Source: an uncultured Acidobacteriota bacterium (GTDB taxonomy: Bacteria; Acidobacteriota; Thermoanaerobaculia; Multivoradales; UBA5704). Taken from it: 64,000 nucleotides of DNA. A program made the position numbers and the translations under genes. This document shows, in pieces, positions 21,674 through 50,573 of the stretch. The notes under the pieces were generated by a model. That model searched no databases and was not told the origin of the DNA. It saw nothing but the letters and a program-made list of their open reading frames with translations. The DNA lies in the NCBI GenBank assembly GCA_963770895.1, contig CAVYRF010000002.1, positions 3,296,001 to 3,360,000 on the forward strand, given 5' to 3'. Position 1 is the stretch's first letter; every line of letters starts with the position of its first letter.

Positions 21674-22025
21674 GTCGGGTCCTTTTTCACGGCTTTGGAC
21701 AGCAGCGGAGCTGCGGGTTCGTGAAGCGGCTCCTTGTATCGGTTACTTTGCTGTCTCGGCACCTCCCGCGCCTAGCGGCGTCGGTGCCGGGATCGCGCCT
21801 TGGATGGAAGCAGGAGCAAAGAGAGAGGTTGTGACGGCTGCTGACGTTGGCGTTGGCAGTCGAGGCCGCCGGTCGGCGGTCTTCAAGTCGTCATGCGAGC
21901 GCTCGATGCGGCCTTCGACTGCCCTCCTTCCGAGAGAGACCGGCAAGCCGCGTCGCCGAAGTGGGCGGGGGCCTTGGAGATCGCCAACCTGCATTTCGTT
22001 GCAGATAGCACGTAAGATTGTGCGC

Positions 22026-27006: not shown

Positions 27007-27046
27007 CCGAACCCGGCAATCCTGGCGCCGCGTCAGCGGGTCGCGG

Positions 27047-27265
27047 CTAGCACGAAACCCCACATGCGGTACAGCCCCTGGTGCAGCCAGAGCAAACATT
27101 CGTGCACGCTGTGCAAGCCACCGTGCAGTCCGTGCAGGCGTTCGTGCAGTTGGAGGCGACTCCCGAGATGCCGCCCCCGGTCCCTCCAGCGGCACCCATC
27201 AAGTCGGCCACGCCCAGGACCATCAACGTCTCATGGTTGAGGACGAGCTTCTTGCGCTTGCGCAT
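27047..27265 (-). CDS. lanA: Lanthipeptide precursor with 10-Cys core
   Basis: Leader KKLVLNHETL..L ending AAGG; Cys/Thr-rich core; AGGGAG RBS; directly upstream of lanC. Confidence 0.88.
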   Translation of the reverse strand: MRKRKKLVLNHETLMVLGVADLMGAAGGTGGGISGVASNCTNACTDCTVACTACTNVCSGCTRGCTACGVSC

Positions 27266-31900: not shown

Positions 31901-32707
31901 GTCGAGTGGCGCGGGGGAATTTCACCCCCGCGCTCTCACGGAACCGGACGTGAGGCTCTCGCCTCATCCGGCTCTTACGATCCAGCCTCCGGTTGCGCCC
32001 CGAGGGTCCACAGCACGAATAGCGTCGGGTTGCGCCGAGCGACGAGTCCCAGCCAATGCACTGAGGCCCGCTTTCGGCGTTGCAGCCGTTTGTACTTCCG
32101 TCGCGCCCAGGCCGCGAGGGCCTCGTTGAGGTGGCGAAGGACCTGGAGACACTTCGACCTGTAGAACCGGCCATAGTAGTTCATCCAGCCCCGTACCGAC
32201 GGATTGACGAGCCGAGCCAGATCCTCCAGGGTTTGATTGTTCCTGGCGGACGCCATCCGCCACTGCCGGATGGTGGCGCGGATCGCCTTGGCGGCGTTGG
32301 TGCTGATCGCCGGCAGGAAGCTGACGAAAAACTCTCCCTGGGGGTTCTTTGCGCGTCGAGGTTGGAAGGTGTAGCCCAGGAAGTCGAACGCTACGTGTTC
32401 GTGCTCCCCACGCCGATTGTCGTCCTTGCAGTAGACGATCCGGGTCTTCACCGGGTGAAGATCCAGACCGCACTGCTCGAACCGATCCCGGATGGCGTCC
32501 AACACTTCTTCGGCCTGCGACCTGCTCCGGCAATGGACGATCGCGTCGTCCGCATAACGTTCGAACTGGACGCTCCGGAAGTTCCCTTGCATCCAGTGCT
32601 CGGCGACAATTACTGCTGTGCAGTGGCGACAACTACACCTGTGCAATTTGAGCAGCGCGTGAAGTGGTTGGCGGTCTCGTACCCCCGGCGACCGGGGAGG
32701 AGGCTGT

Positions 32708-34183
32708 TTGGTCACGAGCGACGCACAGGTGAGACGACTCATGGAAGAGCTGGAGCGAGAAGGCAGGATCGGCAAAGCCGCCCTACGTGCGGGGATGCAC
32801 CGCAACACGGCGCGGCGGTACCGGAAGCTGGGAAAGTTGCCATCGGAGCTGAAGCAGCCGCGGACGTGGCGGACGCGGGAGGACCCGTTTGCCGCGGATT
32901 GGCCGGCTTTGGCGCAGCGTCTTTCGGAGGCGCCGGAGCTGGAAGCGAAGGTACTGTTCGAGGATTTGGTGGCGCGGCGTCCGGAGCGTTACGGGCCCGG
33001 GCAGATGCGGACGTTTCAGCGGCGGGTCAAGGTGTGGCGGGCGCAGCAAGGTCCCGCCAAGGAGGTGTTTTTCTCGCAGCAGCATCGGCCGGGTGAGGCG
33101 ATGCAGAGCGACTTCACCTGGGCCAAGGAGCTGGCGATCACGATCGGCGGCAAGCCGTTCAGCCACCTGCTGTGTCAGGCGGTGCTGCCGTACTCGAATT
33201 GGTCGTGGGTGACGGTGTGCTTTTCGGAATCGCTGTCGGCTCTGCGCCGCGGCGTACAGAGCGCGGTGTTCCGGTTGGGGCGGGTACCGCGGTTTCATCA
33301 GACGGATAACTCCACGGCGGCGACGCACGACCTGCGGACGGGCAAGCGCGGCTTCAACGCTGAGTATGAGGCGTTGATGCGTCACTTGGGGATGGAACCG
33401 CGGACCATCGAACCGGGCCAGAAGCATCAGAACGGTGACGTCGAGGCGCTCAACGGCGCGCTCAAGCGCCGGATCGAGCAGCATCTGTTGTTGCGTGGCA
33501 GCCGCGACTTTGCGAGCCAGGAGGCCTACGAATCGTGGCTTGTGGAGGTGATGGAGAAAGCCAACCGGCTGCGCCGCCGTCGGCTGGCTGAGGAGCTGGA
33601 GGCGATGCATGCGCTACGCGTGGATCGTCTGCCGGAGTACAGCGAGGTGGAGGTCCGGGTGAGCAGCTGGAGCACGATTCGCGTCAAGCACAACGCCTAC
33701 TCGGTGCCGTCACGCTTGACCGGCGAGCGGGTACGGGTGCGGCTGTTTGACGCCCGGTTGGAGGTCTTCTACGGCGGCAGTCATCAGCTGACGATCGATC
33801 GGCTGCGCGGCGAAGGGGGTCACCGCATCGACTACCGTCACATCATCTGGTCATTGGTGCGCAAGCCCGGCGCCTTCGCCCGCTACCGCTATCGCGAGGA
33901 GCTGTTTCCAACGCCGGCCTTTCGCCGCGCCTATGACCGACTGCACGCCGCACGGGCGACGCCGCGGGCCGATCTGGAGTACCTGCGGATTCTGCATTTG
34001 GCCGCCTCGACGATGGAGTCGGAGGTGGAGGTGGCGTTGGAGCTGTTGGGCAAGGAGTTGCCATTGTACGAGCGCGTCAAGGGCCTGGTGCAGCCTGCGC
34101 GATCGTTGGCGGCGCCGGCGGTTTCGGAGCCGGTGGTCGACTTGCGTGCTTACGATGCGTTGCTGGCACAGGTGGCGTCATGA
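32708..34183 (+). CDS. istA: IS21 transposase IstA
   Basis: RTREDPF, QSDFT, TDNS, NGDVE, YSVPSRL. Confidence 0.92.
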   Translation: MVTSDAQVRRLMEELEREGRIGKAALRAGMHRNTARRYRKLGKLPSELKQPRTWRTREDPFAADWPALAQRLSEAPELEAKVLFEDLVARRPERYGPGQMRTFQRRVKVWRAQQGPAKEVFFSQQHRPGEAMQSDFTWAKELAITIGGKPFSHLLCQAVLPYSNWSWVTVCFSESLSALRRGVQSAVFRLGRVPRFHQTDNSTAATHDLRTGKRGFNAEYEALMRHLGMEPRTIEPGQKHQNGDVEALNGALKRRIEQHLLLRGSRDFASQEAYESWLVEVMEKANRLRRRRLAEELEAMHALRVDRLPEYSEVEVRVSSWSTIRVKHNAYSVPSRLTGERVRVRLFDARLEVFYGGSHQLTIDRLRGEGGHRIDYRHIIWSLVRKPGAFARYRYREELFPTPAFRRAYDRLHAARATPRADLEYLRILHLAASTMESEVEVALELLGKELPLYERVKGLVQPARSLAAPAVSEPVVDLRAYDALLAQVAS

Positions 34184-34947
34184 GCGCGGCGGCGGCAAGT
34201 CTGTCGATCCAGCTGCGGGAGCTCAAGCTGCCGGCGTTCGTGGCCTACCACGCGGAGGTAGCGCAGCGGGCCGAGCAGGGCGGCTGGTCGTTTGAGGAGT
34301 ACCTGGTGCAGCTGACGCAGCTGGAGCTCGACGAGCGCCAACAGCGCAAGCTCGAACGCCTGCGCCGGGCCTCGCAGTTACCGGCGGAGAAGACGCTGGC
34401 GACGCTGGACCTATCGCGTCTTCCGGCCAAGGTCCGTCGCCTCCTGCCCAGCCTGTGCGAGGGCGGCTTCGTCGAGCGGGCGGAGAATCTGCTGGCGTTC
34501 GGCCTGCCCGGTCGGGGCAAGTCGCACACGTTGTGCGCGGTCGGTCACGCGCTGGTCGAGCGCGGCTACAAGGTGCTGTTCACGCCGGCGTACCGGCTGG
34601 TGCAGCGTCTGCTGGTGGCCAAGCGGAACCTCGCGTTGGAGGGCGAGCTGCGCCGTCTGGACGGCTTTGACGCCGTGCTGGTGGACGACATCGGCTACAT
34701 CCAGCAGGACCGCGAGGAGATGGAGGTACTGTTCACGTTTCTTGCCGAGCGCTACGAGCGCAAGAGCGTGCTGATCACCAGCAACCTGGTGTTTTCCCAG
34801 TGGGATCAGATCTTCAAGAACCCGATGACCACGGCCGCGGCGATCGACCGCCTGGTCCACCACGCGGTGATCCTGGAGATGACCGGTCCTAGCCTGCGCT
34901 CGGAAACCGCCGTATTGAAGAATCGCGCCGAGGCAGACAGTGCATAA
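34180..34947 (+). CDS. istB: IS21 helper ATPase IstB
   Basis: GLPGRGKSH, DDIGY, AAIDRLVHH. Confidence 0.95.
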   Translation: MSAAAASLSIQLRELKLPAFVAYHAEVAQRAEQGGWSFEEYLVQLTQLELDERQQRKLERLRRASQLPAEKTLATLDLSRLPAKVRRLLPSLCEGGFVERAENLLAFGLPGRGKSHTLCAVGHALVERGYKVLFTPAYRLVQRLLVAKRNLALEGELRRLDGFDAVLVDDIGYIQQDREEMEVLFTFLAERYERKSVLITSNLVFSQWDQIFKNPMTTAAAIDRLVHHAVILEMTGPSLRSETAVLKNRAEADSA

Positions 34948-35611
34948 GCAAACGCTGCCGGCCTGTGGAAGGTGCCGTCCTGTGGAAAACTGGAGCCGCC
35001 GCCCGCCCCACCTCCAGTTTCCCACAGGACTTGGACCACCCACTCGCGTTTCCCACACCTCCGCACAGGCCCGGCGGCGACTAGGCTCTATGCGCCTGAT
35101 TCCATTGAAGAAAGAAGCTACCCCGAAGGCCGGGCCTGCGGCCCGCCCTTCTCCCCCTACACAATGCACAAGTGTAATTGTCGTCGCTGCACAAGTGTAG
35201 TTGACGCCGGGCAATCCAGGTGTCGAACGCATAGTGCAGGAAGAGGTTGGCCAGCAGCGGACTGAGGACTCCGCCCTGCGGCGTGCCCCTCGTGCGCGGC
35301 TCCACGGTCCCGTCTGCCCGCTGCACGGGGGCGCGAAGCCACCGTGCAACGTACAGGCGGACCCATGGGATGTCGGTGTGGTGCGCCACGGCGCGCTCGA
35401 CGAGATCGTGATCCAGGCTGTCAAAGAACGCCTTGATGTCCAGATCGATGACCCAGTCGGCGGCCCAGCATCGCCTCCTGGCAGTCTCCACGGCGTCGAG
35501 CGCAGACCGGCCAGGTCGATAGGCGAACGAGTCGGGATGGAAGCTTGGCTCCACCAGCGGCTCGAGCACCATCTTCGTGACCGTCTGAGCAACGCGGTCG
35601 GCAACCGTGGG

Positions 35612-36567
35612 AATCGTGGTTTCAAATTGCGCCTCTTGCAGTAGTGGTTTGAGTTCGTAGCTTGATCCGCGTCGAACGAGAGACTCTCTGCCGGCAGGCT
35701 TCCTCCACGGCACGCGAAAACGGCACGCTCAAGCGCCCGCCCGCGCCGCGGCGCACGTCAAGCTGGCCGCAAGAGATCCAGTAGTAGACCACGCTCTCCG
35801 CGAGGTCGAGGCGATCGGCGATCTCGGCGACGGTCAACTCGCCGGGGCCGACAAGCGATCGTAGGGGGGCGGGAATCTTGTTCGCATAACGAATCCAGCG
35901 GACGGCGGCGGCGTTGAAGGGACGCCCCGCGCCGGTCGTCAAGCCGGCAGCCGCAAGCTCGGCCACGAGCTCCTCGGCGCTGCGCCCGGAGTGGCGCCTC
36001 ACCAGGTCGATCGCAGCGGCGGGGGTCTGCCGCGGCACGGAGCGAAGGACGACCAGCTCTTCGCTCGCTCCTGTCCGCCAGCGAATGCCCACGCGTATCC
36101 GCGCCCGTCCTCCGAGATCAAGGCAACGTCGGCCACAAGGGTACGCAAGAGGCGTTTGCGATCTTTGGGCGAAGTGGTGGGCGCGGCCCACAGATGAGGT
36201 AAGTCCAGGGCCAACGCTGCCAGATCGTCGCGTGACGGCAAGGGAGCGGCCACCGCCCGCGACGTCGCCAAGGCAGCCTCCGCCTCGCCGAGGACCACCA
36301 GCTTCTCCTCCCAGCGTTGCTCGAGGCTGCGAGCGACCAGACGGTTCTCGGGCTCACAGCGGTGGAACGCCCGCTCCGCCCTCGCTGCCTCGTAGCGGGC
36401 TCGCTCCACTTGGAGTTCTTGCGCTCGGGTGCTGCGCTCCCGTCGCGTGGTGACTTCCTCCGCCGCCGCCAAGGCCAGCGCGATTTGTTCTGGAGCCACG
36501 GCCGCGAGCAGTCGTTCGGCCACCGCGACCCCTTGGTGGCATGGGCGGCATCGCTCCCCATCATCTA
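35612..36567 (-). pseudogene. C-terminal fragment of a second y4bA-like serine recombinase, with its element end
   Basis: ERARYEA, EPENRLVARSLE..W, DRKRLLRTLV paralogous to 14377-16458; frameshifted. Confidence 0.85.
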
Positions 36568-36571
36568 CTAA

Positions 36572-38074
36572 CTCTACTTTGTCAGATTCGTCGACGAGGT
36601 AGAGGCCCTGGATTCTTGCTGTCGGCGAGAAGCAGAGTCGATAGCGGCTTGACGTTGGCGGTGCCGGCTCTGCACCTGACGGATCGACTCCTCGATGTCG
36701 AGGTCCCGCCGGGGTAAGAGCCGAACGAGCAGATGTTTCACGTCGGCAGCACTCAGGAGAGGAAGAGCCTCGCTCTGCAACTGCTTTTCTTTCAGAATGA
36801 AAAGCAGCGCCATCATGACGAGGGCCATGTGGTGATACCAAGCTTGCCAGCTTCGCGCCTGGTATTCGTCCATGCCGGCCTCGTTCTTGGCTTCCTGGAA
36901 GGCACGTTCGACCCAGTAGCGCTGCCGCTGCATATAAGCCAACCGTTGCAAAGAGGTCTGCTCGGCGGCATTGCTGAAGCTGTACTTGGTGGTGTCGGGC
37001 GCACCGATCTCGCGCGTCACGATCAACTGCCAACAGCGGGCTTGGGTCTCTGTGGCTTCGCGCACCCAGACGCGGCAACGCAGGGCTTGCACACGAAGCT
37101 CCCCTTGGGTCCCGCGCCGGACCCATACTTCTTGCCATGCTGCGGCCGGTTGGCGAGCAACCCATTCGTCCACACGCAAGTCTTCAGCGCGAGACTCCGG
37201 TGTCGCCCGACGTCGTTTGGCCCGACGCGGGTTGTCAAGAAAGACCCGTTGGTCCCGGTGAACATCGATGACAAACGTCTCATCGGCGTCGTCGAGGGCG
37301 CGCAGCAGAGCGCGATCCTGACCATACGTCCCATCCGCCGCCACCCAGGCGAAGTGCACTCCGTTGCGTCGTGCTCGTCGAACCAGATCCAGAGCCAACG
37401 CTGGCTTCGTCTTCATCACGCGGCGCTCAACCGGCACACCCGCCGCGGCACATCGCATTGGATCCTCGACCCACTCCCGCGGCAGGTACAGCTCCGCATC
37501 GATCAGGCTGACCCGCTTGCCTCGCGCCAAGGCGGCGAAGACCGCCACCTGGCAGTTATCCGTCTTGCCCTGCAAGCCGAACCACTGCCGAGCTACGCCC
37601 ACCGACCGAACGCCTTTCTTCGCAAAGCAGGTCTCGTCGAGCAGCAGGCAGGTGTCCTGATCTCCGCCCAACAGCCCGCCGACCTCTTTCGCCACTTGAT
37701 CCATGACGGCTCGCGCATCCCAGGGCGAATGAGCGAGAAAGTGGTGCAGTGCCTGAGCCTCGGTGCCGGGCACCACCTCTGCCATCCGCTGGACGTTGCG
37801 CTTTGCGGCCTGCAACAAACCGCTCAGATACGCCCGTGCTTGCAAGTTCACGTCTCGGGTCCGCAGGCGGAAAAGAAGCGCAAATCCCCGCTGAAAGGCC
37901 AGGAATCGCGCTCCCAGCTCTTGCAGGGGAGCTGGGGCATAGCGTCTCTCCTTCCGACTATGGTCCTTTGAGGGGGGGAAGCATCTGGTCTCGGCGAGAA
38001 ATCATACTTTCCAGCCCAATTCTAAGAGCTAACCGCCTTGGAATCAAGCGCTTCCGAAATCTGACAAAGTAGAG
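36572..38074 (-). mobile_element. IS701-family element (transposase ORF 36574-37851)
   Basis: Inverted repeats CTCTACTTTGTCAGATT flanked by CTAA; LDETCFAKKG.RSVGVARQ, ADGTYG, VERAFQEAK. Confidence 0.92.
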
Positions 38075-38079: not shown

Positions 38080-38560
38080 CCGGGCTGTATGCCTCGGCCG
38101 GCTGTGACCCGCGCCTTCCGCGCCGGCACCGACCGCCGCGGCTTCTGCAAGATCGTTCGGTCAAGACCAACCTCGGGCACCTCGATTCGGCGGCCGGCAT
38201 CGCCGGTCTGATCAAGAGCGTGCTCGCCTTGGAGCACCGGCTCATCCCGCCGAGCTTGCACTGCGCGAGCCCAACCCGGCGGTGCCGTGGGAGGAAACGC
38301 CATTCACCGTCGCCGCCGCCGCGGAGCCCTGGGAGAGCTCCGGCGGGCCGCGGCGGGCAGGCGTCAATTCCTTCCGCATCGGTGGCACCAACGCCCACGT
38401 GGTGCTCGAAGAGGCGCCGCCCGCGGCCGCCTCGGGACCCTCGCGCCCCTGGCAGTTGGTGGTGCTGTCGGCGGCAAACGCCGCCGCGGGCGATCTCGCC
38501 GGCTGGCTCGGTGCTCATCCCGAGGTGCCGCTGGCCCCGCCTGCCCTCGTGCACCGCCTA
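38080..38560 (+). pseudogene. PKS ketosynthase C-terminal fragment, frameshifted
   Basis: [44 protein letters not shown]. Confidence 0.8.
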
Positions 38561-38569
38561 CGCCAGGCG

Positions 38570-38794
38570 CTTCATGAACGAGCGCAACCGCAGCGCCGCC
38601 GCGACGCTCGCCGACTTCGCCACGGCGCGCGGCTGCTCGCTGCGCGAGCTGGCGTTCTCCTGGCTGCTGCACCGGCCGGTCGTCTCATCGGTCATCGCCG
38701 GCGCCACCAGCGCGTACGGGCCAACGCCGCAGCCCCCGGCCGGCAGCTCACCGCCGAGGATCTCGCTGCGATCGACCGGCTCGCGACGCTCTGA
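38570..38794 (+). pseudogene. Aldo/keto reductase C-terminal fragment
   Basis: [21 protein letters not shown], then [12 protein letters not shown] in another frame. Confidence 0.7.
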
Positions 38795-38935
38795 CGGAGC
38801 GCTCGGCTTCTTGGCGGAGGAGACTAGCCCCATAAGGGCTTGTTTCTTTCTCTTCTTTATTCTAGAATTACTATTCTTGAGGATTCCTTGCATGACGCTG
38901 ACTTCTATACCCTCGGGCTGCTCGACCTAGGCGCA

Positions 38936-41659
38936 ATGCTTGGAAACACAGACCTTACTCAGTCGACAGGCCTGCCCGCTCCCCCGGTCATCGCCCGGCT
39001 CGCAGGCCTATCCGCACAGGCCATCGAATCCCTTACGAGCCCGTCCTGCCTCGCCCTTCTGCAAGCCCGGGAGCTTCTCCAAGCAGAGCTCGAAGAATCC
39101 AGACGATCCATGGCCGAGGCCATCGGCCACGCCCTGCTTGGATTCAACGTTGAGCACCGCCGGTTCCTGCTGGCGATCAAGCGCAGCTGCTTCAACCGCC
39201 GCGAGATCGGGATTCACCGCGAAAAAACACTCTGGAACGTGCTTATCCGGCTTTCCCCCAATCTGGCAGAGAGGATGGCGGCTCTTGAAGATCAACTCCG
39301 CGCGAACGATCTCGCTCTCACCGCCCTTTACAAGCGTGAGCGCACCCGCGAACGACGACATGTCCTCGACCTGATAGAAGACCACCGCTTCTTACGGGGT
39401 GTGGCCCTGGGAAGTCCTGGCTTAGTTCAGAAGATACGCGCTCATGCCCCATCTCTAACGGCTTCCGACCCACTGAAACACCCCGCGAAGTGGGAACAGA
39501 GCCTTCTTCGCTTCGTTACCCGCGCGGCGGCCAAGCTGTCCGCCAACTCGACGCTCACTACCTATGCTTTGGGGAGCATCCAGGCATCGCCATCCTCGCA
39601 AGCCCTGCATTTCGTCCACTCTCCACAAAGAGAGCTTTCATTAGTGCGCGCGGACCGCCCAGAGACCGAGAAGCTCGAAAATCTTCTTCTGCGCCATCCG
39701 GCGGTACGAGCGCGCGCCTTTGTCGCCAGCAACAACAAATGCGAAGAACTCGAGGCGGGGCGGCATCGCTTCCTGCGTGGTGGCCACTGGACCCTCGATC
39801 CTGGCGCGAAAGATCTTCGCTTTGTCGCGCCCTCACGGATTACGCTGAACCTCTCCAACTCGCTCTTGGGAGTTGCCCAAAAAGCTCTCCGTAGCGGTGA
39901 GCTCCGATATGACCGACTGCTGGCTATTCTAAGAGACGCACTTCAAGGGATTCCGATAGCCGACACGCCCAGCACGTGCCCCGAGAGCGCGCTCGATCAA
40001 TTCCTTGACCTCGGACTCCTTGTTCTCATGCCGCCATGGCGACCTTATGATGCCTGGTTGGAGCAACAAATCTGCGAGTTCCTGCGAGCGGTGCCAAACG
40101 CACCCGCTCTTCTCTCGATTGCCGACATCCTGGACGAGCTCCTCGCCGCCGAAAGACGATTCGCTTCAACGCCCCGGCCCGAGACTGCGATCGCCAGCAT
40201 GGAAGATACCTTCTCGCGGCTGCTCAACACGGTTGCCCACCAAGTCGGCCATGAGGGTTCGCTCACAACTCGGCCCCATTTCTTCGAAGACGTGCTCGTA
40301 GAACCCGTGGCGCCCTCAGCAGACAACCGGATACTCATTCAGGTCGCGGCGTCAACGGTTCAGAAGATCCTCGAGAGCGCAACCCTTGTCTCACGCTTTG
40401 CGGGCTTGTTCAACCATCGCCACGACGTTCTGCACACCCTGGCCGCCTGGTGGAAGGATCACGAGCCAAGCCGTCGCGAGATCCCCTTTCTCGTGATCGC
40501 CCAGGGGTTTGCCCCGATCTGGAGCCAGTTCATCCATTTTAACAAGACCGCGAACGCGTCTACCCTCAGCATGTTCGATCCGCTGCAAACGTCTAGTCTC
40601 CGGACGCTGCTGGAATTACGCCGGACACTCCTCGTCAACTACAGAGCTTTGCTGAGCGCATCGCCAACAAAAGATCTCATCTCACCGCAAGATCTCGCAG
40701 AGCTCGTACAGTCGCTTCCCTGCCGCTACGCCCCTCTGGTCGGATCATGCGTCTTCGTCCAACCCATCGATGCCGATGGCGATTACTGGGTGCTCAACGA
40801 TATTCATGAGGGGACGGGCCGCTACTTGAGCCGCGTCACACCACTGTTGGAAAAGCCACTCCAGCAGCGGTTCCTCGACCATCTAACTGCGAGATCGACT
40901 GTCGCTCTCGAAGGAGAGGAGGCCGATCTACTGGAGGTCATGAATCCCTGGGGCAACCTGGTAAATGCGCATCCGCCTCAGGCAGCGAAAGTCTTGGACA
41001 TCCCGGGCCTGCGCCTTGATCTGCCGCCAGCGCGGAGGATCCGGCTCGGCGACCTCACAGTGCAAGCGGATCTCGACGCCGAGGACTTCCGTTTGGTCGA
41101 CGCTTCAGGACGGCGCATGCTCCCCGTCAACCTGAGCACCCTGGCCGATGTCTGGCATCCAAATATCCTACGCTTTCTTCTCGCGTTTGGGCCTGGCCAG
41201 ACTCGCGGTGTCTTTCCCCCTGCGCACTCGGAGGGCGATGATAACCTGTGCAGCTTCGACCGCTTAACCTGCGGCAAGTTGGTGCTACGCCGGCGGCGCT
41301 GGATGATCGCTATCCAATGCCTCCGCGAAGGGTTGCAGGGTCTTTCCGCTCTCGAATCTTACGCTTACGTCCAAACCTGGCGCCGTCGGTTACAGCTGCC
41401 GCAGGTGGGCTTTTATTCCGAGCGCACCTATCATGGTGCATTCAAGCCACAGTATGTTGACCTAAGCTCTCCGTCCCTGTGCGGACTTTTCGTGTCCAGC
41501 CTGAGCAGGATGACGGCTGGACATCTGGTCCTTGAAGAAGCCCTGCCTTCACCCGCAAGCTACCCTTTCGATGTGATGGCAAATCGCCGAGGGCTTGAGC
41601 TTCTGATAGATAGCTTGGCAATCCGTGCCGCTGGTGGAGCTCACTCTGCCAAGGCATGA
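38936..41659 (+). CDS. lanB: LanB-type dehydratase glutamylation domain (small LanB/PEARL-like)
   Basis: N-terminal RLAGL, RAAAK..NST, RRRW, KPQYVDLSSP, EEALP; about 907 aa with no fused elimination domain. Confidence 0.85.
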   Translation: MLGNTDLTQSTGLPAPPVIARLAGLSAQAIESLTSPSCLALLQARELLQAELEESRRSMAEAIGHALLGFNVEHRRFLLAIKRSCFNRREIGIHREKTLWNVLIRLSPNLAERMAALEDQLRANDLALTALYKRERTRERRHVLDLIEDHRFLRGVALGSPGLVQKIRAHAPSLTASDPLKHPAKWEQSLLRFVTRAAAKLSANSTLTTYALGSIQASPSSQALHFVHSPQRELSLVRADRPETEKLENLLLRHPAVRARAFVASNNKCEELEAGRHRFLRGGHWTLDPGAKDLRFVAPSRITLNLSNSLLGVAQKALRSGELRYDRLLAILRDALQGIPIADTPSTCPESALDQFLDLGLLVLMPPWRPYDAWLEQQICEFLRAVPNAPALLSIADILDELLAAERRFASTPRPETAIASMEDTFSRLLNTVAHQVGHEGSLTTRPHFFEDVLVEPVAPSADNRILIQVAASTVQKILESATLVSRFAGLFNHRHDVLHTLAAWWKDHEPSRREIPFLVIAQGFAPIWSQFIHFNKTANASTLSMFDPLQTSSLRTLLELRRTLLVNYRALLSASPTKDLISPQDLAELVQSLPCRYAPLVGSCVFVQPIDADGDYWVLNDIHEGTGRYLSRVTPLLEKPLQQRFLDHLTARSTVALEGEEADLLEVMNPWGNLVNAHPPQAAKVLDIPGLRLDLPPARRIRLGDLTVQADLDAEDFRLVDASGRRMLPVNLSTLADVWHPNILRFLLAFGPGQTRGVFPPAHSEGDDNLCSFDRLTCGKLVLRRRRWMIAIQCLREGLQGLSALESYAYVQTWRRRLQLPQVGFYSERTYHGAFKPQYVDLSSPSLCGLFVSSLSRMTAGHLVLEEALPSPASYPFDVMANRRGLELLIDSLAIRAAGGAHSAKA

Positions 41660-41699
41660 GTACGACAGAGAGATGAATCTCTCAGAAAGGAAGTGCAAA

Positions 41700-41861
41700 A
41701 TGTCAGAGACACTGGACCCGAAGGCGGACGTCGAGATCGAGACCCTTTCCGAAGAAGATCTCGATTCGGTCAGTGGTGGGGTCAACAGCGGGGCTCCCGA
41801 CAACACCGGAACCGGAACCTGCGTCAACAACTCAGGGACCGGGACCTGCTCTGGTTCCTAG
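41700..41861 (+). CDS. RiPP precursor with double-glycine leader
   Basis: ETLSEEDLDSVSGG leader; core VNSGAPDNTGTGTCVNNSGTGTCSGS; AAAGGAAG RBS. Confidence 0.88.
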   Translation: MSETLDPKADVEIETLSEEDLDSVSGGVNSGAPDNTGTGTCVNNSGTGTCSGS

Positions 41862-41874
41862 TCTTCGGAGCGAC

Positions 41875-41908
41875 TCCCCGCCCCCGATCGCTTGGTCGGG
41901 GGCGGGGA
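41875..41908 (+). terminator. Strong hairpin after the precursor gene (partial terminator or mRNA stabiliser)
   Basis: 13-bp stem TCCCCGCCCCCGA/TCGGGGGCGGGGA with no long U tract. Confidence 0.6.
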
Positions 41909-41970
41909 ATTCCGGTTCGTTATTCGTCGGACGGGGTTTGGCGCTTACCCACGGCAAGGGAGGTAGTGTG

Positions 41971-43212
41971 ATGGAGCATAATGCGCGATCCTTTAGGGAC
42001 CTGATCGCCCCACTATCCTTCGACGATTTTCTTGCGAATTACTGGGAGAGAACCTTCCTTCATCTTCAGGGTGAGCCTGAACGCTTTGCCGATTATTTCT
42101 CGTCGCGCGATATTGATAGCTGGCTAACCTCGACGCGGTCGGGACTGCCGGACAGCATCATGATCACAGCCCCTGAAGGCGCCGAGGCTCGATCCGACAA
42201 GTGTCGCCCAGGTGATATTGGCGCGGATGCGGTCCATATGGCGTTTGCGAGGGGCTCCTCGCTGGTCCTGAACCACATGGAAGACTGGCCCTCGCTGCAT
42301 CGTCTCGTCAAGGCGCTGGGACGAGACTTTCATGCCGATATCGGCGTGAACGCCTATTTCACTCCCAAAGGAGCGCGGACGCTTCCGATACACACCGATG
42401 AGCATGACGTCTTGATTCTACACCTTGAGGGAGAAAAGGTCTGGCGCCTTCATGAGTTTTCCCTCCTGCAGGTCCGTCTCGCACAGAAGAAGAATCTTCG
42501 GTTTTCCCAGGAATGGTACGGCAGGACCAGTACGCCGCTCCTCGCCGAGATAGTAATCCGGCCCGGCGACCTACTGTACATTCCACGCGGAATGCCGCAT
42601 TTCGCGGTAGCGCAAGACAGCACTTGCCTGCACCTGACGGTGAGCGTGTCACCGTTGTACTGGATGGATTTCCTGAAGATCGCCGCCGAGCAGGCGGCAA
42701 TCTATTCACAGGAGCTGCGGCGAGCACTACCGCCCGGCTTTGTCGACAGCCAAGAGCTCTGCGACCGAATGCGGCGCGCTTTCCCAGACATCATGAGGGC
42801 GTTCCAGGAATTCACTTCCTTCGACGAAGTGCTCGCAGCGATCAAGCGAAACCGAGTGACATTCCAGGGCGCCCCCGCGGATGGCCAATTTGCGCTTTTC
42901 TCATCAACCGATGATCTCGTCGCCGAATCCGAGGTCGAGCGACGCCGAGACGTCCTCTGTGTAGTCGACGAGGTCTTCGACAATGAGCGGAACAAGAAGA
43001 TTGCAATTTGGTTTGCCAATCAATACGTTGCCGGCCCGCCGCACCTGCGACGGACGCTGGAGTTCATCCGCGACCATGCCAAGTTCCGCGTGTCCGAGAT
43101 GCCTGGTCTCGATGAGAACGGCCAGATGATTCTGGTGCGCCGCTTGATCAGGGAGGGCCTATTGCGCCGAGTAGCAGAGCGCACCACGGCGCCAGAGCTC
43201 GTCTTGGCCTGA
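41971..43212 (+). CDS. JmjC/cupin_4 (YcfD/NO66-like) Fe(II)/2-oxoglutarate oxygenase
   Basis: NAYFTP, PIHTDEHDV (HxD), GEKVW, PGDLLYIPRGMPH, LVRRLIREGLL winged-helix tail. Confidence 0.9.
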   Translation: MEHNARSFRDLIAPLSFDDFLANYWERTFLHLQGEPERFADYFSSRDIDSWLTSTRSGLPDSIMITAPEGAEARSDKCRPGDIGADAVHMAFARGSSLVLNHMEDWPSLHRLVKALGRDFHADIGVNAYFTPKGARTLPIHTDEHDVLILHLEGEKVWRLHEFSLLQVRLAQKKNLRFSQEWYGRTSTPLLAEIVIRPGDLLYIPRGMPHFAVAQDSTCLHLTVSVSPLYWMDFLKIAAEQAAIYSQELRRALPPGFVDSQELCDRMRRAFPDIMRAFQEFTSFDEVLAAIKRNRVTFQGAPADGQFALFSSTDDLVAESEVERRRDVLCVVDEVFDNERNKKIAIWFANQYVAGPPHLRRTLEFIRDHAKFRVSEMPGLDENGQMILVRRLIREGLLRRVAERTTAPELVLA

Positions 43213-43237
43213 GCAGCTTGCGCTACCGCTTTCAGGC

Positions 43238-44314
43238 TCAAGGTAGACGGGAGCCTGGCCTCCCGGGGGGGGCGGCGAGCTTGGCGAGAGCTTTAGAGAG
43301 AAGGTCGCCGAAGGCCGTCCCTGGTTGCTCCACCGCTCCCCACATATTGTGTTTCCGAAGCCAGGACAGGCTCTCTCCGGGTTTGGCGCGAAGCTCGCAA
43401 AAGGTCACGCTCAAGAGCCGGCTAATGTAGACCTCCTCTGCGTTGCAGAGACCCAGCCGCGTCGCGGTCATGTGCAACTGGCTTCCGCCGATACGCGCTC
43501 TGGTCGAGCGGTCGGAGTCTCTGATCGCGTTCGAGAGTCGGCCAGCACCCAGGGCGAGGAGGTCCCCTTCCATGCCGCATGACCCTTCGACCCGCAGCGC
43601 GCGCGCCTCGGCCAAGCTATCACCTAAGAGTTGGAGAAAGGTCGTCATTTTGGAACATGCGACGGCATCCCCCTTTTCGACGACCCTGGGCAGTGCCCCG
43701 CCCCACGAATCCACGCCATACCTGATGAGATCGATCAATTCGAGCTCATCGACCGAGAAACCGAGAGCCTGTCGAAACAGAAGCTGGAGGGCGTGCGCGA
43801 GTTGCACAGACCGCGACACTTCCGCACATTTCGCGAGAAACTGAAGGGCCGCGGCGCTCGACAGCGTGAAGAAGTCGAGCGATGCCCGGAAAAGGACTGG
43901 TCCTCCGTAGCGTTCGACCTCGGGCCGGAACGGCGCAAACCGGAACCAGTTGTCCGGATAGACCGAGTCGTCAGTCTCATTAGGTTCCCCTCTGAGGAGG
44001 GACTCGTTGGTTCGCCGAATCGTCTCCTTGTCAACCGATCGGGTCGAGGGAGTGAGTTGCAAAAAGCGTTGAGCGCACTGCTGCATTGCTTCCTGAATGC
44101 GCTTTCTGCTCCCTGGCCTAATCCGAAGTCGCAGACGGATGTGAGGCCCCCCCAAGGCATAACGGACGAAAAAGAATGCACCGATCTCGTCTTCTCTAAC
44201 AAGAGAGGCAACGAGAGGATGCACAAAGGACCGAACTACCTGATCGAGGCTTTGGTGATAGTAGAGATGACCCGCGATCCAGCTGTTTTGGATTTCCTCG
44301 ATTGTTCCAGGCAT
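43238..44314 (-). CDS. Stand-alone lantibiotic dehydratase C-terminal (elimination) domain, thiopeptide-type
   Basis: W...HLYY, FFVRY..GGPHIRLR, PEVERYGG, SQLHMT..RLG. Confidence 0.88.
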   Translation of the reverse strand: MPGTIEEIQNSWIAGHLYYHQSLDQVVRSFVHPLVASLVREDEIGAFFFVRYALGGPHIRLRLRIRPGSRKRIQEAMQQCAQRFLQLTPSTRSVDKETIRRTNESLLRGEPNETDDSVYPDNWFRFAPFRPEVERYGGPVLFRASLDFFTLSSAAALQFLAKCAEVSRSVQLAHALQLLFRQALGFSVDELELIDLIRYGVDSWGGALPRVVEKGDAVACSKMTTFLQLLGDSLAEARALRVEGSCGMEGDLLALGAGRLSNAIRDSDRSTRARIGGSQLHMTATRLGLCNAEEVYISRLLSVTFCELRAKPGESLSWLRKHNMWGAVEQPGTAFGDLLSKALAKLAAPPGRPGSRLP

Positions 44315-44734
44315 TTGAGGATCCCCAGGGTGCTCTCGACCCTTGACAAAGGCCGTCGGATAGGTTGCGGTTGGTTGCGCAGCCCATATATCACGTATAG
44401 CTAATATGAGCAATATGTGAACCCGCTCCGCGCACGATCGCGCTCGCTGGGCGGGGATGCCAGTCACAGTCAGATCTTTCACCATCGTTGCGTGAGCGGC
44501 AGAAGCGGCTAACCCAACCTCCGGTCGCGCGAGGGGCCTCGCGCGTCGCCGGAATCCGCCGTTTAGGGGCTGCTTGTCTGTTGCCAGCCCTTTTGGCTGC
44601 CGGTGCCTGAGTAGGTGTCCCATGCTCCGTTTCCACAGCCACCGTTCGGGCCTCCGCCGGCAACGAGCCCCATCTTTTGCCGGACGCTTGCCACTCTAGT
44701 ACGCGAAAGGCCCGATCTGGTCGCGCTCCATACC

Positions 44735-44928: not shown

Positions 44929-45760
44929 TTACTGGTAGTACCCGTTGACGTCGATCAGCAGATTGAGCGACGAGGCCGAGTCCACCTGCACCTTGACCGA
45001 GCCGGCGCCGTTGTGCGCCAGGCCCATCATCACGTTGTTGGCCAGCACCGCCCCGGCGTTGAACGACACGGTGGTGGAGAGCGGCGACACCGTCTCGTCA
45101 CCCGGATACAGCCGCACGTCGCCGCCGGCACCGGGCTGCACCACCGTGACGTTGGTGGCCAGCGACTTGGCCGTGGTCGGCACCCCGCAGGCGCCCCGCA
45201 GGCGCCGGTGAGCACGAACGTCCGCGTCGAATTCGCCGCCAGCGCCGGCCCGCCCAACGGCCCCGCGGCGTTGCGCGTATCGACCAGGCGACATGGCGTG
45301 ATCGTATGGAACCGCGCCGCCGGCAGATTGTTGAGGTAGTGCGTCGTGGTCGACGCCATCGCGATCCCGTGCCCCGAATCGCGGTCGGTGCCCGCCGACA
45401 TGATGTCGAGCGCCGACTCGAGCATCGCCACGCGCACCTGGTCCGGCGACGGGTGCGTCGGCAGCGACAGCGCGAGCGCCGCCATCGCCGCCGCGTGCGG
45501 CGCCGCCGCCGAGGTGCCGCAGAAGGGGCTGAAGCCGGTCACCGCCGTCGGCACGCAGTCCGCCGCGGTGACGTCGACCTTCGGCAGCACCGTGCCGCCG
45601 TTGGTGGCGATGAGGAAATTGCCCGGCGTGATCGACGTGCCGTTGGGGTTGAAGAAGATGCGGCGCGGGCCGTCCGAGCTGTAGAACTCGACCGCCGTCG
45701 AACCGCTGGCGGTGAACGCCCCGCCCGCCGCCTTCGACACCGGCACCGCCTTGGAGTTGC
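44929..45760 (-). pseudogene. S8 serine peptidase C-terminal fragment with surface domain, frameshifted
   Basis: GTSAAAPH, PCRLVDTR, IDVNGYY; an 11-bp tandem duplication CCGCAGGCGCC at 45185-45206 shifts the frame. Confidence 0.8.
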
Positions 45761-46070
45761 ACCGAGGCGGACGCCAAGCCCCAGCCCAGAGGCTCGCGCT
45801 ACAGGCCTTGCCCGGCACCAAAGGATCCTCATGTTCGCCACGACGCCGCACCAGCCGATCTGTCCGTGTCCGAATCGCCACCATCGGGTCCGGCCGGCCA
45901 AGGATCCTCGGCCGCAGCAGCTGACTGCCGGGAACTTGAGCAAATCCGTCGTCGACACCCGTGAGCCCCGCCCTTGCCTGTGCGGCTGGAGCGCCAGCCT
46001 CGTTGCCCAAGGTCCTCGCCATGCCCTTGACTGCAAAACGAAAACACCCGGCGCCAGGCGGCAGCCGCCA

Positions 46071-47874: not shown

Positions 47875-49536
47875 ATGCTCTTCGGCCGCCTCTTCATCTC
47901 CTCGGTCTTCGGCGGCCTCCTCGACCTGCGCGCCGCCGCCGCCGCGGCGGCGAAGCTCGCCGGCTTCGAGCCGGTGCTGACCGAAACCCACGTCGCACAA
48001 CCCCTCGCCGTTCGCGACGCGCTGACCCGCGAGATCGACGCCTGCGACACCTACCTGGGCCTCTTCGATCAACGTCGAGGCACCGTCCCCAAGACCGGCA
48101 CCGCCGACCATCGGGCGATCACCGAGGAAGAGCTCCGCCTGGCCCGCGAGCGCGGGTTGCGCTGCCTGGTCTTCCTGTCGCGAGACGCAGCCGGCACCCG
48201 CGACCCGCGGCTGACGGAGTTTCTCGACCGTGAGGTCACCGACTACGCCGCCGGCCTGTGGACGCGGCCCTACGACGGCGAGGCCGGCCTGCGGCGCGAG
48301 ATCGTCGCGGCTCTCGCCGCCCTGCGGCCGCGATTGGTCCTCGCCCTCGAGGCGCAACCAAGCGCCGCCCCGGGGGCGTTCCAGGCGAGCCTCGACCTCC
48401 GACCCCTGGGTCCCGCCTGGGCCGGTCCCGCCGCCGCCGGCCCCCTGCCCGCGGACCTCCACCTCGACCCCGGCACCACCGCCGTGCTCGCGGCGTTTCG
48501 CCACGGCGAGGACGCACGCAACCGCCTCGATCCGGCGGCCCTGCAAGTCGCCGGGGCGGCTCTCGCCGGCACCCTGCCAAGCCCCCTGCGCGACGCCCTG
48601 GCCCAGGTGCTCGACATGACCGCCGGCCGCGGGCGGCTGGTACTGCTCGAGGTGCGGTCCGCCGACAGCGGCGTGCTCGGCCTGCCGTGGGAGCTGCTCT
48701 CGCTGCCGGGGCACCCCCTGCCCGTGCGAGAGGGTCTCCTCGAGATCGTCCGCCGGGTCGTGCTCCCCGGAACGCCGGCGGCTCCGGCCCTGGAGCCAGC
48801 GACCGCGGTGCCCGCCGACCGCCTGGACGTCCTCGGCTTCACCGCTTCGCCGATCGAGGATCAGCAGGAGGGCGCCGGCCTCGGCAACGCCGGCCTGACC
48901 GGCGACAGCGATCTCTTCTGGGAGCGCGAGCAGGAGCGCCTGCTCGTCGCGCTCGACGGCTTGGTGCGCCAGGGCCGCGGGAGGCTGACCCTCCCCGAGA
49001 CCGGCGACCGCGACGAGCTCCGCCGGGAGCTGGCGCGCCCCGACCGGCCGCAGCTCGTCCACCTCGCCTGCCACGGCGGCACTCGGCCCGCAACCGACGG
49101 CGCCGCCGAGCCCGTGCTCTATCTCGAAGACGTCGACGCGCATCGCGCCGCCATCGGCCCGGGCGAGTTGCTCGGCTGGTGCCGCGCCACCCCCACCGCC
49201 GCCGACCTCGAGCTGATGGTGCTCGCCGCCTGCAGCACCGCCAGCGCTCCGGCAGCTGGCCGCGCCGGCGGCACCGCCGCCGGCCTGCGCGCCGCAGCCG
49301 CTACGCCACCGCCGCCGGAGGAGGCACCCCCGGCGCGGGGTTTCGCCGAAAGGCTCGTGCGCGGCGGCGTGCCGCGCGTCCTCGCGATGCAGAGCGTGAC
49401 AGCCGATGAGGGCCGGCGGCGCCAGCGAGTGTCTACAGGAAGCAAAGTCTCCGTTGCTCGAAGAGTCTGGGGTAAAGTGCTACAGTTAAGCCATGTGCGC
49501 ATGCGGCCTTCGTCTAAGATGAATTCAAGTCCATGA
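47875..49536 (+). CDS. DUF4062 + CHAT domain protein, probably 3'-truncated near 49410
   Basis: LFISSVF..L...R, ITEEE...A; GLPWELL, LVHLACHG, VLAACST, VLAMQ; tail loses composition. Confidence 0.8.
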   Translation: MLFGRLFISSVFGGLLDLRAAAAAAAKLAGFEPVLTETHVAQPLAVRDALTREIDACDTYLGLFDQRRGTVPKTGTADHRAITEEELRLARERGLRCLVFLSRDAAGTRDPRLTEFLDREVTDYAAGLWTRPYDGEAGLRREIVAALAALRPRLVLALEAQPSAAPGAFQASLDLRPLGPAWAGPAAAGPLPADLHLDPGTTAVLAAFRHGEDARNRLDPAALQVAGAALAGTLPSPLRDALAQVLDMTAGRGRLVLLEVRSADSGVLGLPWELLSLPGHPLPVREGLLEIVRRVVLPGTPAAPALEPATAVPADRLDVLGFTASPIEDQQEGAGLGNAGLTGDSDLFWEREQERLLVALDGLVRQGRGRLTLPETGDRDELRRELARPDRPQLVHLACHGGTRPATDGAAEPVLYLEDVDAHRAAIGPGELLGWCRATPTAADLELMVLAACSTASAPAAGRAGGTAAGLRAAAATPPPPEEAPPARGFAERLVRGGVPRVLAMQSVTADEGRRRQRVSTGSKVSVARRVWGKVLQLSHVRMRPSSKMNSSP

Positions 49537-50573
49537 GATTACCCTTCCGCAACTGGCTGCAGGAGCAGCTTCTCGACCACGACTCGCGTTCGCTCTACGA
49601 CGAGGCGATCCTCTCCTATCAAGTCGGGGCCAATCGTGGCGCGCTGTTACTGTCCTACCTTGCATTTCTGAGAACGATTGCTGGTCGGCTGATGCAGGCT
49701 AGTAAACCTACTTGCATTCCTGAGAGACTTTGGGAAAGCATCCAAGGGGGGCTAAGAAACGACCTGCAATGGGAGCGGCAAGCGTTTGACGCGCTATCGC
49801 GTACGCAGCCGATTTCCATTTTCCTGATAGATGATGAGATCCGCCAGCAGCTGGAATACTGGCGCGGGAGAAGAAACGATGTGGCTCACTCGCGCGGCAA
49901 CGAAATAGGTCAAGCGCACGTCGAGGCTTTTTGGATGTTTGTGCGATCCAATCTATCCAAGTTTGTTGTAAACGGCGGGCGCGAAGGATTGCTAGAGAGA
50001 TTCCGGCGGCACTTCGATCCGGGCCAGACTCCGCCAGACCAGGACTTTACGCATTTGGTTGCAGAGATCTCAAGTGCTGTTAGGCCACAGGAGCGGCGCG
50101 ACTTTTTCAGATCTCTCGTCGAGGCGACCGGAGCATTCGGAGATATAGACATTGCCCAAATGGATTACAGAATAGCGAGCAAGGGTAAGGCTCTGCTCGA
50201 TTCCGTGAGTCGTGTGAATGATGCGGTGCTAATTGAGAATCTGGCCGAGGAGATGCGAGCGCGTCCAGACTTGTTAGTTGCGTGCCTGCTTGCTAGGCCG
50301 CAGCTCGTGCACTGGTTCGGCGAAGATCGCTCTCTCATTAGGTCTCTTTGGCACGACCTTCTTCCACTTGAAGCGTCAATTTATCACGCCCCGCTAATAT
50401 TACTCCGTTATGTCATGAGGAGTCATTCTGAAAGGTCCTCCGGCAGACTGGGCAGCATCCGGCCCATCGAACGAGAAGAATCTGGAGCTTCTGACGGGTC
50501 TGGGGAAGGGTCCAGGATGGAGTTTTTTTGGAGCGAAGCGTCTCCAAGGCGAGAAACGCATAGGCGAGGCTGA
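49533..50573 (+). CDS. Low-GC HEPN-like protein, truncated by an IS701 end near 50397
   Basis: YDEAI.SY..GA.R..LL N-terminal helix and RNDVAH (RX4H). Confidence 0.6.
   Translation: MRLPFRNWLQEQLLDHDSRSLYDEAILSYQVGANRGALLLSYLAFLRTIAGRLMQASKPTCIPERLWESIQGGLRNDLQWERQAFDALSRTQPISIFLIDDEIRQQLEYWRGRRNDVAHSRGNEIGQAHVEAFWMFVRSNLSKFVVNGGREGLLERFRRHFDPGQTPPDQDFTHLVAEISSAVRPQERRDFFRSLVEATGAFGDIDIAQMDYRIASKGKALLDSVSRVNDAVLIENLAEEMRARPDLLVACLLARPQLVHWFGEDRSLIRSLWHDLLPLEASIYHAPLILLRYVMRSHSERSSGRLGSIRPIEREESGASDGSGEGSRMEFFWSEASPRRETHRRG

Follow-up and report, generated by a model that had tools for sequence, protein, structure and literature searches.

The DNA analysed here is a 64,000-nucleotide stretch (the window) from an uncultured Acidobacteriota bacterium, and positions 38936–44314 of it hold four intact genes and one RNA hairpin. 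The genes encode a LanB glutamylation-domain protein (LanB-N), a short precursor peptide with a double-glycine leader, a JmjC protein of the ROX/NO66 type and, on the opposite strand, a stand-alone LanB elimination protein (the lyase). We conclude that this cassette is probably an intact, self-contained biosynthetic module of an undescribed Acidobacteriota family of peptides synthesized ribosomally and modified post-translationally (RiPPs) that derives from lanthipeptide pathways of class I (LanB-type). In this LanB-type RiPP pathway the cyclase LanC has been lost and a ROX-type JmjC protein has become fixed; the JmjC protein has in turn lost its ligands in 14 of 40 evaluable cluster homologues. 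In the window, all four open reading frames (ORFs) are open and retain every column that is invariant in the family, the oxygenase ligands included. A literature search, supplementary tables aside (for example Table S6 and the lyase network of PMC9486935), found no description of a family that combines a split LanB with a JmjC protein; the papers on lanthipeptides and JmjC proteins concern other systems.

No gene for LanC, YcaO, a peptidase or a transporter lies inside 38936–44314. An earlier sequence-only reading of this DNA had said so, and the statement holds for the block but not for the genome, where a peptidase-exporter is encoded in trans on another contig. A set of 89 related loci, 19 genomic and 70 metagenomic, was searched by tblastn for the cassette proteins, the export proteins and, with five references, LanC. 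The JmjC gene comes directly after the LanB-N gene in 38 of the 89 loci, and 30 of these 38 have enough downstream DNA to be evaluated. Eighteen share the order of the window (type A: LanB-N, precursor, JmjC, reversed lyase), eleven carry a LanC gene between JmjC and the lyase (type B), and one (L017) is degraded. The LanC assignment in type B was confirmed by Pfam in two loci (L025 and L058). More distant loci (type C, 25–35% identity) have LanC upstream of LanB-N and then the lyase, and a JmjC gene is present in only four of them. The survey of homologous neighbourhoods that the sequence-only reading had called for thus finds the gene order kept without LanC in 18 of 30 loci, and not a LanC or YcaO gene in every one. 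Because the cyclase-less form recurs in 18 loci and its sister clade is LanC-bearing, we regard it as an old, stable derived state of a clade and not as a local break. Since the sister loci (11/30) carry LanC between JmjC and the lyase, the family appears to be a derivative of a lanthipeptide family by LanC loss. The architecture, which had been called unfamiliar, is therefore a recurrent form in its own right, with its origin in a LanC-bearing family.

In the DNA available, LanC was found in only one of the 18 type A loci (L044), where it belongs to a neighbouring gene set, and in none of the other 17. In that locus (5543; ~12600–15400) no precursor lies between LanB-N and a ligand-dead JmjC gene, whose match starts 54 nt after LanB-N; the LanC gene is accompanied by a precursor with TTYTC repeats (TxxTC-type), ~5–7 kb upstream. 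Locus L016 has a LanC gene 12.4 kb upstream that is part of an adjacent type C cluster. In this locus (positions 1–3000) and in L110 (G003:C1:1556000-1563800), a second split-LanB cluster with LanC stands directly upstream of a LanC-less JmjC cassette, in the order LanC, lyase-like gene, LanB-N and a precursor with the core ...CTCSNCPTYTCP, so that two related RiPP modules share one exporter locus. At a larger scale, the LanC_like match nearest to the cassette is 546 kb away in the L014 genome and 288 kb away in the L018 genome. The L022 genome has only two LanC matches, both LanM-sized (frames of 1127–1161 aa); one lies on the contig of the cassette at a distance of 358 kb, the other on a different contig. 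Pfam scans of the window and of 48 + 119 ORFs in the flanks of 19 related loci turned up no YcaO.

The large gene (38936–41659, plus strand) encodes 907 residues from the ATG at 38936. Its start is uncertain by 16–32 codons: no stop interrupts the frame as far back as a TTG at 38840, and the copy in the database has 923 residues. As a single sequence, LanB-N has no match in Pfam or NCBIfam, even at E ≤ 10, and matches one solved chain, the goadsporin biosynthetic protein 9jhq_A (E = 3.5e-5). A profile of 26 homologues reaches 6ec7_A, a stand-alone ‘lantibiotic dehydratase domain protein’ of 861 residues that we take to be thiomuracin TbtB, at E = 1.3e-42, and 9jhq_A at 2.6e-25. The protein contains no Lant_dehydr_C part. 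Based on the profile matches to solved stand-alone LanB proteins, which agree with the earlier description of a glutamylation-only LanB, we consider LanB-N a divergent LanB glutamylation protein without the elimination part. It is present in a single copy in the genome and is rare elsewhere. A collection of 5.8 billion proteins contains 77 homologues, eight of which have a precomputed PF04738 assignment, and nearly all those with named records come from Thermoanaerobaculia or Acidobacteriota metagenome-assembled genomes. Among 401 genomes sampled evenly across the phylum, the window’s genome counted, only two have a match at E ≤ 1e-30.

The gene for the predicted glutamate lyase (43238–44314, minus strand; 358 aa) is convergent with the JmjC gene, with 25 nt between the two stops. 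The protein matches PF14028 (E = 3.9e-31) and scores 77 bits against TIGR03891 (cutoff 48), compared with 57 bits against NF045556, the TbtD/PbtD pyridine-synthase model (cutoff 325). A phmmer search of the PDB with the single sequence gave no match; a profile reaches MadB, TbtD, NisB and MibB. In the alignment, R61 and R63 (in GGPHxRLR), R136 (in ERYGG) and H282 correspond to NisB R784/R786, R826 and the C-terminal histidine (H961 region). The GGPH-x-R-L-R motif, the arginine of P-E-x-E-R-Y-G-G and the histidine of the C-terminal L-H-M-T-A are invariant or nearly so in 15 aligned lyases, and the aligned TbtD has R-I-Y at the first site and lacks ERYGG. In NisB, R784 and R786 bind the glutamate carboxylate, and the equivalent of R826 marks anti-eliminating lyases, being hydrophobic in syn-lyases (PMC9486935); H961, R826 and R786 of NisB are named together in PMC4341554. 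The AlphaFold2 (AF2) model of the protein has a mean confidence (pLDDT) of 88.2. Fold alone leaves the assignment undecided, because TbtD and PbtD outrank the LanB elimination domains in the fold search. The residues favour an anti-type glutamate lyase. Moreover, the protein is the sole Lant_dehydr_C protein in the module, so it must be the lyase if dehydration takes place. The convergent stand-alone elimination domain of the sequence-only reading is thus recovered by PF14028, by TIGR03891 and by the NisB-type Arg/Arg/Arg/His set.

The precursor gene (41700–41861, plus strand) encodes 53 residues, a 27-residue leader and a 26-residue core, and is preceded, 7 nt upstream of its ATG, by a putative ribosome-binding stretch rich in purines (AGAAAGGAAG; 41684–41693, plus strand). 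The leader ends in ...LSEEDLDSVSGG, with the double-Gly motif SVSGG. The core, VNSGAPDNTGTGTCVNNSGTGTCSGS, contains two N-[ST]-G-T-G-T-C units, DNTGTGTC and NNSGTGTC, just as first described from the sequence. NCBIfam has no match for the peptide. Its leader motif, h-E-h-E-x-L-s-D-x-D-L-E-S-V-s-G-G, is common to locus types A, B and C, and a six-frame scan of the whole 8.16-Mb genome found the family leader in one peptide only, the precursor in the window. Type A cores consist of 2–5 Gly-rich repeats, each closed by a single Cys, for example N-S-G-S-G-T-C four times in L022 and x-T-S-G-G-T-C five times in L013 and L017. Early-branching type A cores have N-N-A-T-T-G-C, and type B cores have N-N-A-T-T-G-C together with S-N-x-A-N-A-C-C. 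A Ser or Thr stands 1–5 residues ahead of every Cys, and the Cys is invariant at the repeat ends; a pair of Ser residues is not conserved among the cores of the relatives.

Just 3' of the precursor stop is a 15-bp G+C-rich stem-loop (41875–41908, plus strand). The 70 nt after the stop fold at -41 kcal/mol (z = -4.04), and none of 200 shuffled sequences folds as well, which substantiates the hairpin reported earlier. A stem-loop occupies the same place in all 15 loci folded, with differing sequences and energies of -22 to -41 kcal/mol, those of the relatives being given without a shuffle control. This layout suggests control of read-through into the enzyme genes, and the hairpin is probably an attenuator, a partial terminator or an element that stabilizes the mRNA.

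The JmjC protein (41971–43212, plus strand; 413 aa; PF08007, E = 2.4e-23) is a predicted Fe(II)/2-oxoglutarate (2OG) oxygenase encoded by a single-copy gene. NCBIfam has no match for it. The best solved relative is NO66 (E = 8.4e-25); MINA53, B. subtilis YxbC and YcfD are also among the nearest. H141-T-D143, K156 and H210 align with the H-Y-D motif of NO66, the Lys of its G-R-K-L-W and its distal His; the intact HxD...H that had been noticed at first inspection is accompanied by an intact 2OG Lys. The protein begins with a cupin core, continues with a helical part in the middle and closes with a beta-beta-beta-alpha-alpha domain at the C terminus (residues ~330–394). Its AF2 model has a pLDDT of 68.7, with a poorly modelled linker, and Foldseek aligns it along the entire length (420–470 columns) with NO66, MINA53 and YcfD, with E values down to 2.6e-21. 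The model indicates with moderate confidence that a JmjC core, a helical dimerization part and a C-terminal winged-helix domain are all present.

The 14 homologues that have lost the ligands all belong to LanC-less cassettes, and the ligands are intact in 12 of 12 homologues with LanC in the cluster. In the dead copies H141 is changed to Y or F or is kept, D143 is changed to A or C, K156 to A, R or E, and, in two, H210 to Y or F. Such loss is unusual in the wider JmjC family, which comprises 1,447 representatives at E ≤ 1e-30: H/D/K/H is intact in 141 of the top 150. The ligand-dead homologues are still full length, and the C-terminal domain keeps 14 invariant columns across intact and dead members. 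The ratio of nonsynonymous to synonymous substitution rates (dN/dS) is 0.21–0.34 for dead–dead pairs (dS < 0.6) and 0.09–0.24 for intact pairs. Because ligand-dead copies remain full length under purifying selection, their retention implies a second, non-oxidative role for the JmjC protein, one that operates without iron. PF08007 proteins can carry beta3-alpha3 domains that resemble RiPP recognition elements (RREs), and bacterial homologues occur in RiPP-like contexts (PMC12710340). The second role is probably leader binding or scaffolding through the C-terminal winged-helix/RRE-like domain.

We also considered whether the JmjC-like protein is what made LanC dispensable. It could bind the leader through the RRE-like domain and hold the dehydrated Gly-rich heptads for ring closure by Cys, or it could scaffold the two LanB halves. 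This would explain why the JmjC gene is fixed between precursor and lyase and why the dead copies, which occur in LanC-less cassettes alone, are kept under purifying selection. We regard the proposal as speculative and rather doubtful. If it is true, a cupin pseudo-oxygenase acting as a chaperone or cyclase for lanthionine rings would be a new kind of RiPP component.

The state of the oxygenase site is linked to the sequence of the core. An Asn stands six residues before the terminal Cys (position -6) at 43 of 53 positions in ligand-intact loci (24 loci). In LanC-less loci with intact ligands the fraction is 27/27 (11 loci), both repeats of the window included, with Asn34 ahead of Cys40 and Asn43 ahead of Cys49. 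In ligand-dead loci it is 10/59 (13 loci), the Asn being replaced by Thr (29), Asp, Glu, Ser and others. The co-variation between an intact JmjC site and Asn at -6 points to Asn hydroxylation of the window peptide, and the Asn six before each Cys is most likely the substrate residue of the JmjC protein, for which it is the best available pointer.

The survey also reveals how the product would leave the cell. Eleven of the 18 type A loci have, on one side of the cassette, genes for a cyclic nucleotide (cNMP)-binding protein, a ~1000-aa ABC protein, a C39-peptidase ABC transporter, HlyD and a TolC-like protein, and on the opposite side a gene for a ~1100-aa adenylate/guanylate cyclase-AAA-TPR protein. 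This exporter set is also found beside modules of types B and C (L025, L076, L093 and L095). None of these exporter and regulator genes is in the window. The entire set is found in order on contig C1 of the same genome (G000), at ~1,779,915–1,792,132 (L038, L039 and L029). The exporter there scores 344 bits against the HlyD model TIGR03794 (cutoff 156), 1073 against the peptidase-ABC model TIGR03796 (853) and 919 against the ABC model TIGR03797 (709), and the set is 57–72% identical to the one beside the cassette in L010; its TolC-like protein is 44% identical to that of L022. The cNMP and cyclase genes on C1 are ~115 bp apart with no biosynthetic genes between them, the place where L023 and L025, whose gene order is the same, carry theirs. 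Since no other peptide encoded in the genome bears the family leader, the C1 exporter seems to have one evident client, the window precursor, encoded on another contig. Upstream of this exporter are genes for a flavoprotein (PF02441), two radical SAM proteins, a carbamoyltransferase and a MacB permease.

The cassette is also set apart by its base composition. Its G+C content is 0.592, compared with 0.668 for the remainder of the window and 0.732 for the C1 exporter set. In successive 500-nt windows the value is 0.548–0.624 across 39000–44499, 0.666–0.684 just upstream and 0.68–0.72 just downstream, which upholds the original impression of a lower-G+C block. Among the relatives, cassette G+C is below flank G+C in 12 of 13, by up to 0.14. 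This pattern fits horizontal exchange of a biosynthetic module into a resident exporter locus, and by composition and distribution the four genes appear to behave as a horizontally mobile lower-G+C unit. Comparison of the cassette flanks with the empty C1 site gave only chance-level DNA matches of 15–47 nt, and thus no sequence trace of a move between the two places.

Based on these observations, we propose the following pathway. LanB-N would glutamylate Ser and Thr residues of the core with Glu-tRNA, as its homologues do, and the separate anti-type lyase would then remove the glutamate to give dehydroalanine and dehydrobutyrine. The JmjC oxygenase would hydroxylate the peptide, most likely at the Asn at -6 from each Cys, and would have in addition a conserved non-catalytic role, probably in leader binding or scaffolding. 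Each Cys would add to a dehydro residue of its own heptad, so that every repeat would acquire a single small thioether ring with no dedicated LanC involved. This closure, which may be spontaneous or templated by the JmjC protein, is the weakest step. Finally, the leader would be cut at the GG motif and the product exported by the NHLP-type C39-peptidase ABC/ABC2/HlyD/TolC set on the other contig.

Several observations weigh against this pathway, and some of them lend themselves to other explanations. All of its chemical steps are read from homology or co-variation, and the divergence of LanB-N is great enough to hide it from Pfam and NCBIfam. The hydroxylation step is affected by the inactivation of the oxygenase in much of the LanC-less clade, because of which hydroxylation cannot be essential to the family product. 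In the dead locus L013, all five repeats still carry Asn or Asp at -6. The dead homologues fall into two well-supported sub-clades of the JmjC tree, which share a polytomy with intact ones; since this polytomy allows a single change, the contrast in Asn may rest on one or two independent losses. As for ring closure, the sister clade of 11 loci retains LanC in the cluster, so a cyclase may be needed, and the genome contains 14 LanC_like matches, two of them in the window, 12 kb upstream of the cassette. Both facts would fit a class I lanthipeptide pathway of the ordinary split-LanB kind, in which a LanC from another place in the genome closes the rings. We judge this rather unlikely. The LanC-like proteins of the window are only ~28% identical to the cluster-type LanCs, which are 45–55% identical among themselves, and their ORFs are separated from the cassette by insertion sequence (IS) elements and an integrase. 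The DNA of 17 of the 18 LanC-less relatives shows no LanC, and the L022 genome, which is of uncertain completeness, offers only its two LanM-sized matches. The product might also be a linear dehydro-peptide, or one in which oxidative Cys chemistry by the JmjC protein (sulfoxide, C-S or S-S cross-links) replaces Michael-type lanthionine rings, as the sequence-only reading had suggested with its oxidative cross-linking. The missing cyclase, the Fe/2OG oxygenase and the Cys at each repeat end would suit such a product, but relatives with a ligand-dead JmjC protein retain the same Cys-terminated repeats, so that an active oxygenase cannot be a requirement of the conserved Cys chemistry. In addition, by established lanthipeptide chemistry, free thiols near dehydro residues in Gly-rich loops are expected to add spontaneously. 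We consider either outcome improbable.

The assignment of the two LanB proteins can be questioned in a similar way. LanB-N proteins without an elimination part can be peptide aminoacyl-tRNA ligases (PEARLs), and the fold search with the small protein places the [4+2] aza-cyclases TbtD and PbtD (TMq 0.6–0.7) above the elimination domains of MadB, MibB and NisB, so that the pair could be read as a PEARL-type ligase or as including a pyridine synthase of a pyritide- or thiopeptide-like pathway. However, the small protein keeps the lyase residues that the aligned TbtD lacks, and its score against the pyridine-synthase model is far below the cutoff. The flank scans found no YcaO or azole genes, and the cores of the relatives do not conserve a pair of Ser residues. 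Because a syntenic lyase is present in 29 of the 30 evaluable loci, a PEARL is unlikely, and the alternative as a whole is very improbable. Over a PEARL or a pyridine synthase, both of which the sequence-only reading had asked to be weighed, a split dehydratase is thus favoured. It is also conceivable that the cassette, lying among IS elements and gene fragments and cut off from its exporter and regulators, is orphaned, silent and on its way to decay. Its flanks contain IS21 istAB, a split intron gene, a DDE_5 transposase, fragments of polyketide synthase (PKS), aldo-keto reductase and S8 peptidase genes, and two integrases. A weak test for sigma-70-like promoters found none upstream and one site inside the large gene that is no better than in shuffled sequences, and the relative L017 has truly decayed, with frameshifts and no elimination gene. 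In the window, by contrast, the four ORFs are open with all family-invariant columns, oxygenase ligands included, and the genome has kept an intact cognate exporter and regulator set for which the window peptide is the only matching substrate. We find a silent orphan unlikely. An intact, LanC-less module of lanthipeptide descent remains the reading that we prefer.

Understood in this way, the cassette represents a compact five-part RiPP family (a two-piece LanB, a ROX-type JmjC protein, a repeat precursor and a hairpin) from a little-studied soil phylum. Because Pfam is blind to the large protein and LanC is absent, rule-based genome miners would probably miss it. Sister lineages that have LanC, that lack it, or that lack it together with oxygenase activity provide a natural test of the need for a cyclase in making lanthionine rings, and changes in their core motifs run in parallel. 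Retention of the JmjC protein after loss of its metal site points to an unrecognized non-catalytic role of ROX-like proteins in peptide maturation, and the Asn(-6) rule is a testable prediction of a new class of substrates for ROX-type oxygenases. At the level of the locus, the layout resembles a socket and plug: a resident exporter and regulator locus hosts interchangeable lower-G+C biosynthetic modules, the two being separated in the present genome.

Some related loci depart from the common types. L027 (genome G406) combines LanB-N, three precursors with cores ending in NACC..., an intact JmjC protein, LanC, a radical SAM protein and a glycosyltransferase; no lyase lies within 10 kb, and both Lant_dehydr_C matches of G406 are on other contigs. 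The degraded locus (L017:10001-14400) is a decaying copy, in which LanB-N and JmjC are broken by frameshifts into several tblastn pieces and the lyase was not found; its five-repeat precursor is still open. In L022 (477–3048), ~7 kb upstream, an MNIO gene (MbnB/TglH/ChrH family) lies with genes for a TauD-type oxygenase and an O-methyltransferase; the group is probably a RiPP system of its own. In the present genome, G000:C2:5178843-5181027 (L004 and L036) has a conventional pair, a LanC-like gene beside a Lant_dehydr_C match in a frame of 1179 aa, which is a full-length LanB.

In the window, the cassette landed in an island of mobile-element debris. On the upstream side, IS21 istA and istB (32708–34947; istA 32708–34183, istB 34180–34947) are inserted in a group II intron reverse transcriptase/maturase gene, which is split into an RVT N part (35081–35713) and an RVT C part with GIIM (31975–32808), both on the minus strand. 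A DDE_5 transposase gene follows (36574–37851), and integrase genes are present at 30406–31689 and 52992–54191. A PKS ketosynthase fragment (C-terminal extension, PF16197) with an aldo-keto reductase tail (38220–38930) directly precedes the cassette, and the C-terminal part of an S8 subtilase/peptidase (45030–46022) lies downstream of it. These border fragments look like scars from insertion into older genes. Farther upstream, at 21642–27195, a MacB/FtsX permease gene is followed on the opposite strand by two overlapping LanC-like ORFs (24476–26155 and 25669–27195, both minus strand; 559 and 508 aa), the group being 12–17 kb upstream of the cassette. The LanC-like proteins are ~40% identical to each other, and each has a long N-terminal extension. 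At 47875–50573 a gene for a DUF4062-CHAT protein (553 aa, G+C ~0.75) overlaps by 4 nt with a 346-aa ORF (G+C 0.54) that has no Pfam match. PADLOC found no match for the CHAT gene and its neighbouring genes, and the pair may be a candidate for an uncharacterized two-gene conflict system. In a search of sequencing runs, the cassette was listed in two DNA runs of one study, both labelled soil metagenome, with word shares of 0.24 and 0.11; no RNA run is listed as containing it.

Comparison with known systems shows which parts of the cassette are shared and which set it apart. The exporters that flank the relatives, and the C1 orthologue, score above three transport-model cutoffs for NHLP/Nif11-type export (TIGR03794, TIGR03796, TIGR03797 and TIGR03896 describe this type). 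Exporters of this type cleave double-Gly leaders, which the family precursors possess. In contrast, the cassette has a short leader of ~27 aa that belongs to neither the NHLP nor the Nif11 domains, and the exporter is unlinked in the present genome. The JmjC protein matches NO66, MINA53, YcfD and B. subtilis YxbC (‘putative asparaginyl hydroxylase’) over its whole length in sequence and predicted fold, and shares their triad and 2OG Lys. As in the ribosomal oxygenases, the architecture is in three parts with a terminal winged-helix-like domain. It differs in that identity is only 14–23%, that its gene lies within a RiPP operon, and that many operon orthologues are ligand-dead; in addition, its likely substrate is a leader-bearing peptide whose core has neither Arg nor His. 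Other JmjC proteins are known to act on RiPPs. A His hydroxylase of the JmjC type belongs to the thioamitide pathway. BipG of the biphenomycin pathway is a JmjC-type Fe/2OG tailoring hydroxylase that acts on a ribosomal peptide (PMC12707348). The targets of these enzymes are Orn or His residues of unrelated scaffolds, and none of them is paired with a LanB or reported to persist as a conserved pseudo-enzyme.

The nearest solved relatives of LanB-N are the split LanBs of thiopeptide and goadsporin pathways (6ec7_A and 9jhq_A), stand-alone glutamylation proteins of ~860 residues that work with a separate lyase; we presume these split LanBs to be TbtB/TbtC and GodF/GodG. Their products keep dehydro residues without lanthionine rings. 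Unlike those pathways, the cassette lacks YcaO and azole machinery as well as a second Lant_dehydr_C protein that could be a pyridine synthase, and its core has one Cys per repeat instead of azole-forming runs. The split-LanB class I lanthipeptides (the pinensin type; SapT with SptBa/SptBb and SptC) likewise divide glutamylation and elimination between two polypeptides, place a Ser/Thr/Cys-rich core behind a leader, and have a lyase with the anti-type hallmark Arg equivalent to NisB R826 (PMC7268733 and PMC9486935). Compared with these systems, the cassette and 17 of its 18 closest relatives have no LanC in the cluster, a ROX-type JmjC protein is fixed between precursor and lyase, Gly-rich heptad repeats make up the cores, the hosts belong to the phylum Acidobacteriota and the exporter is of the NHLP type.

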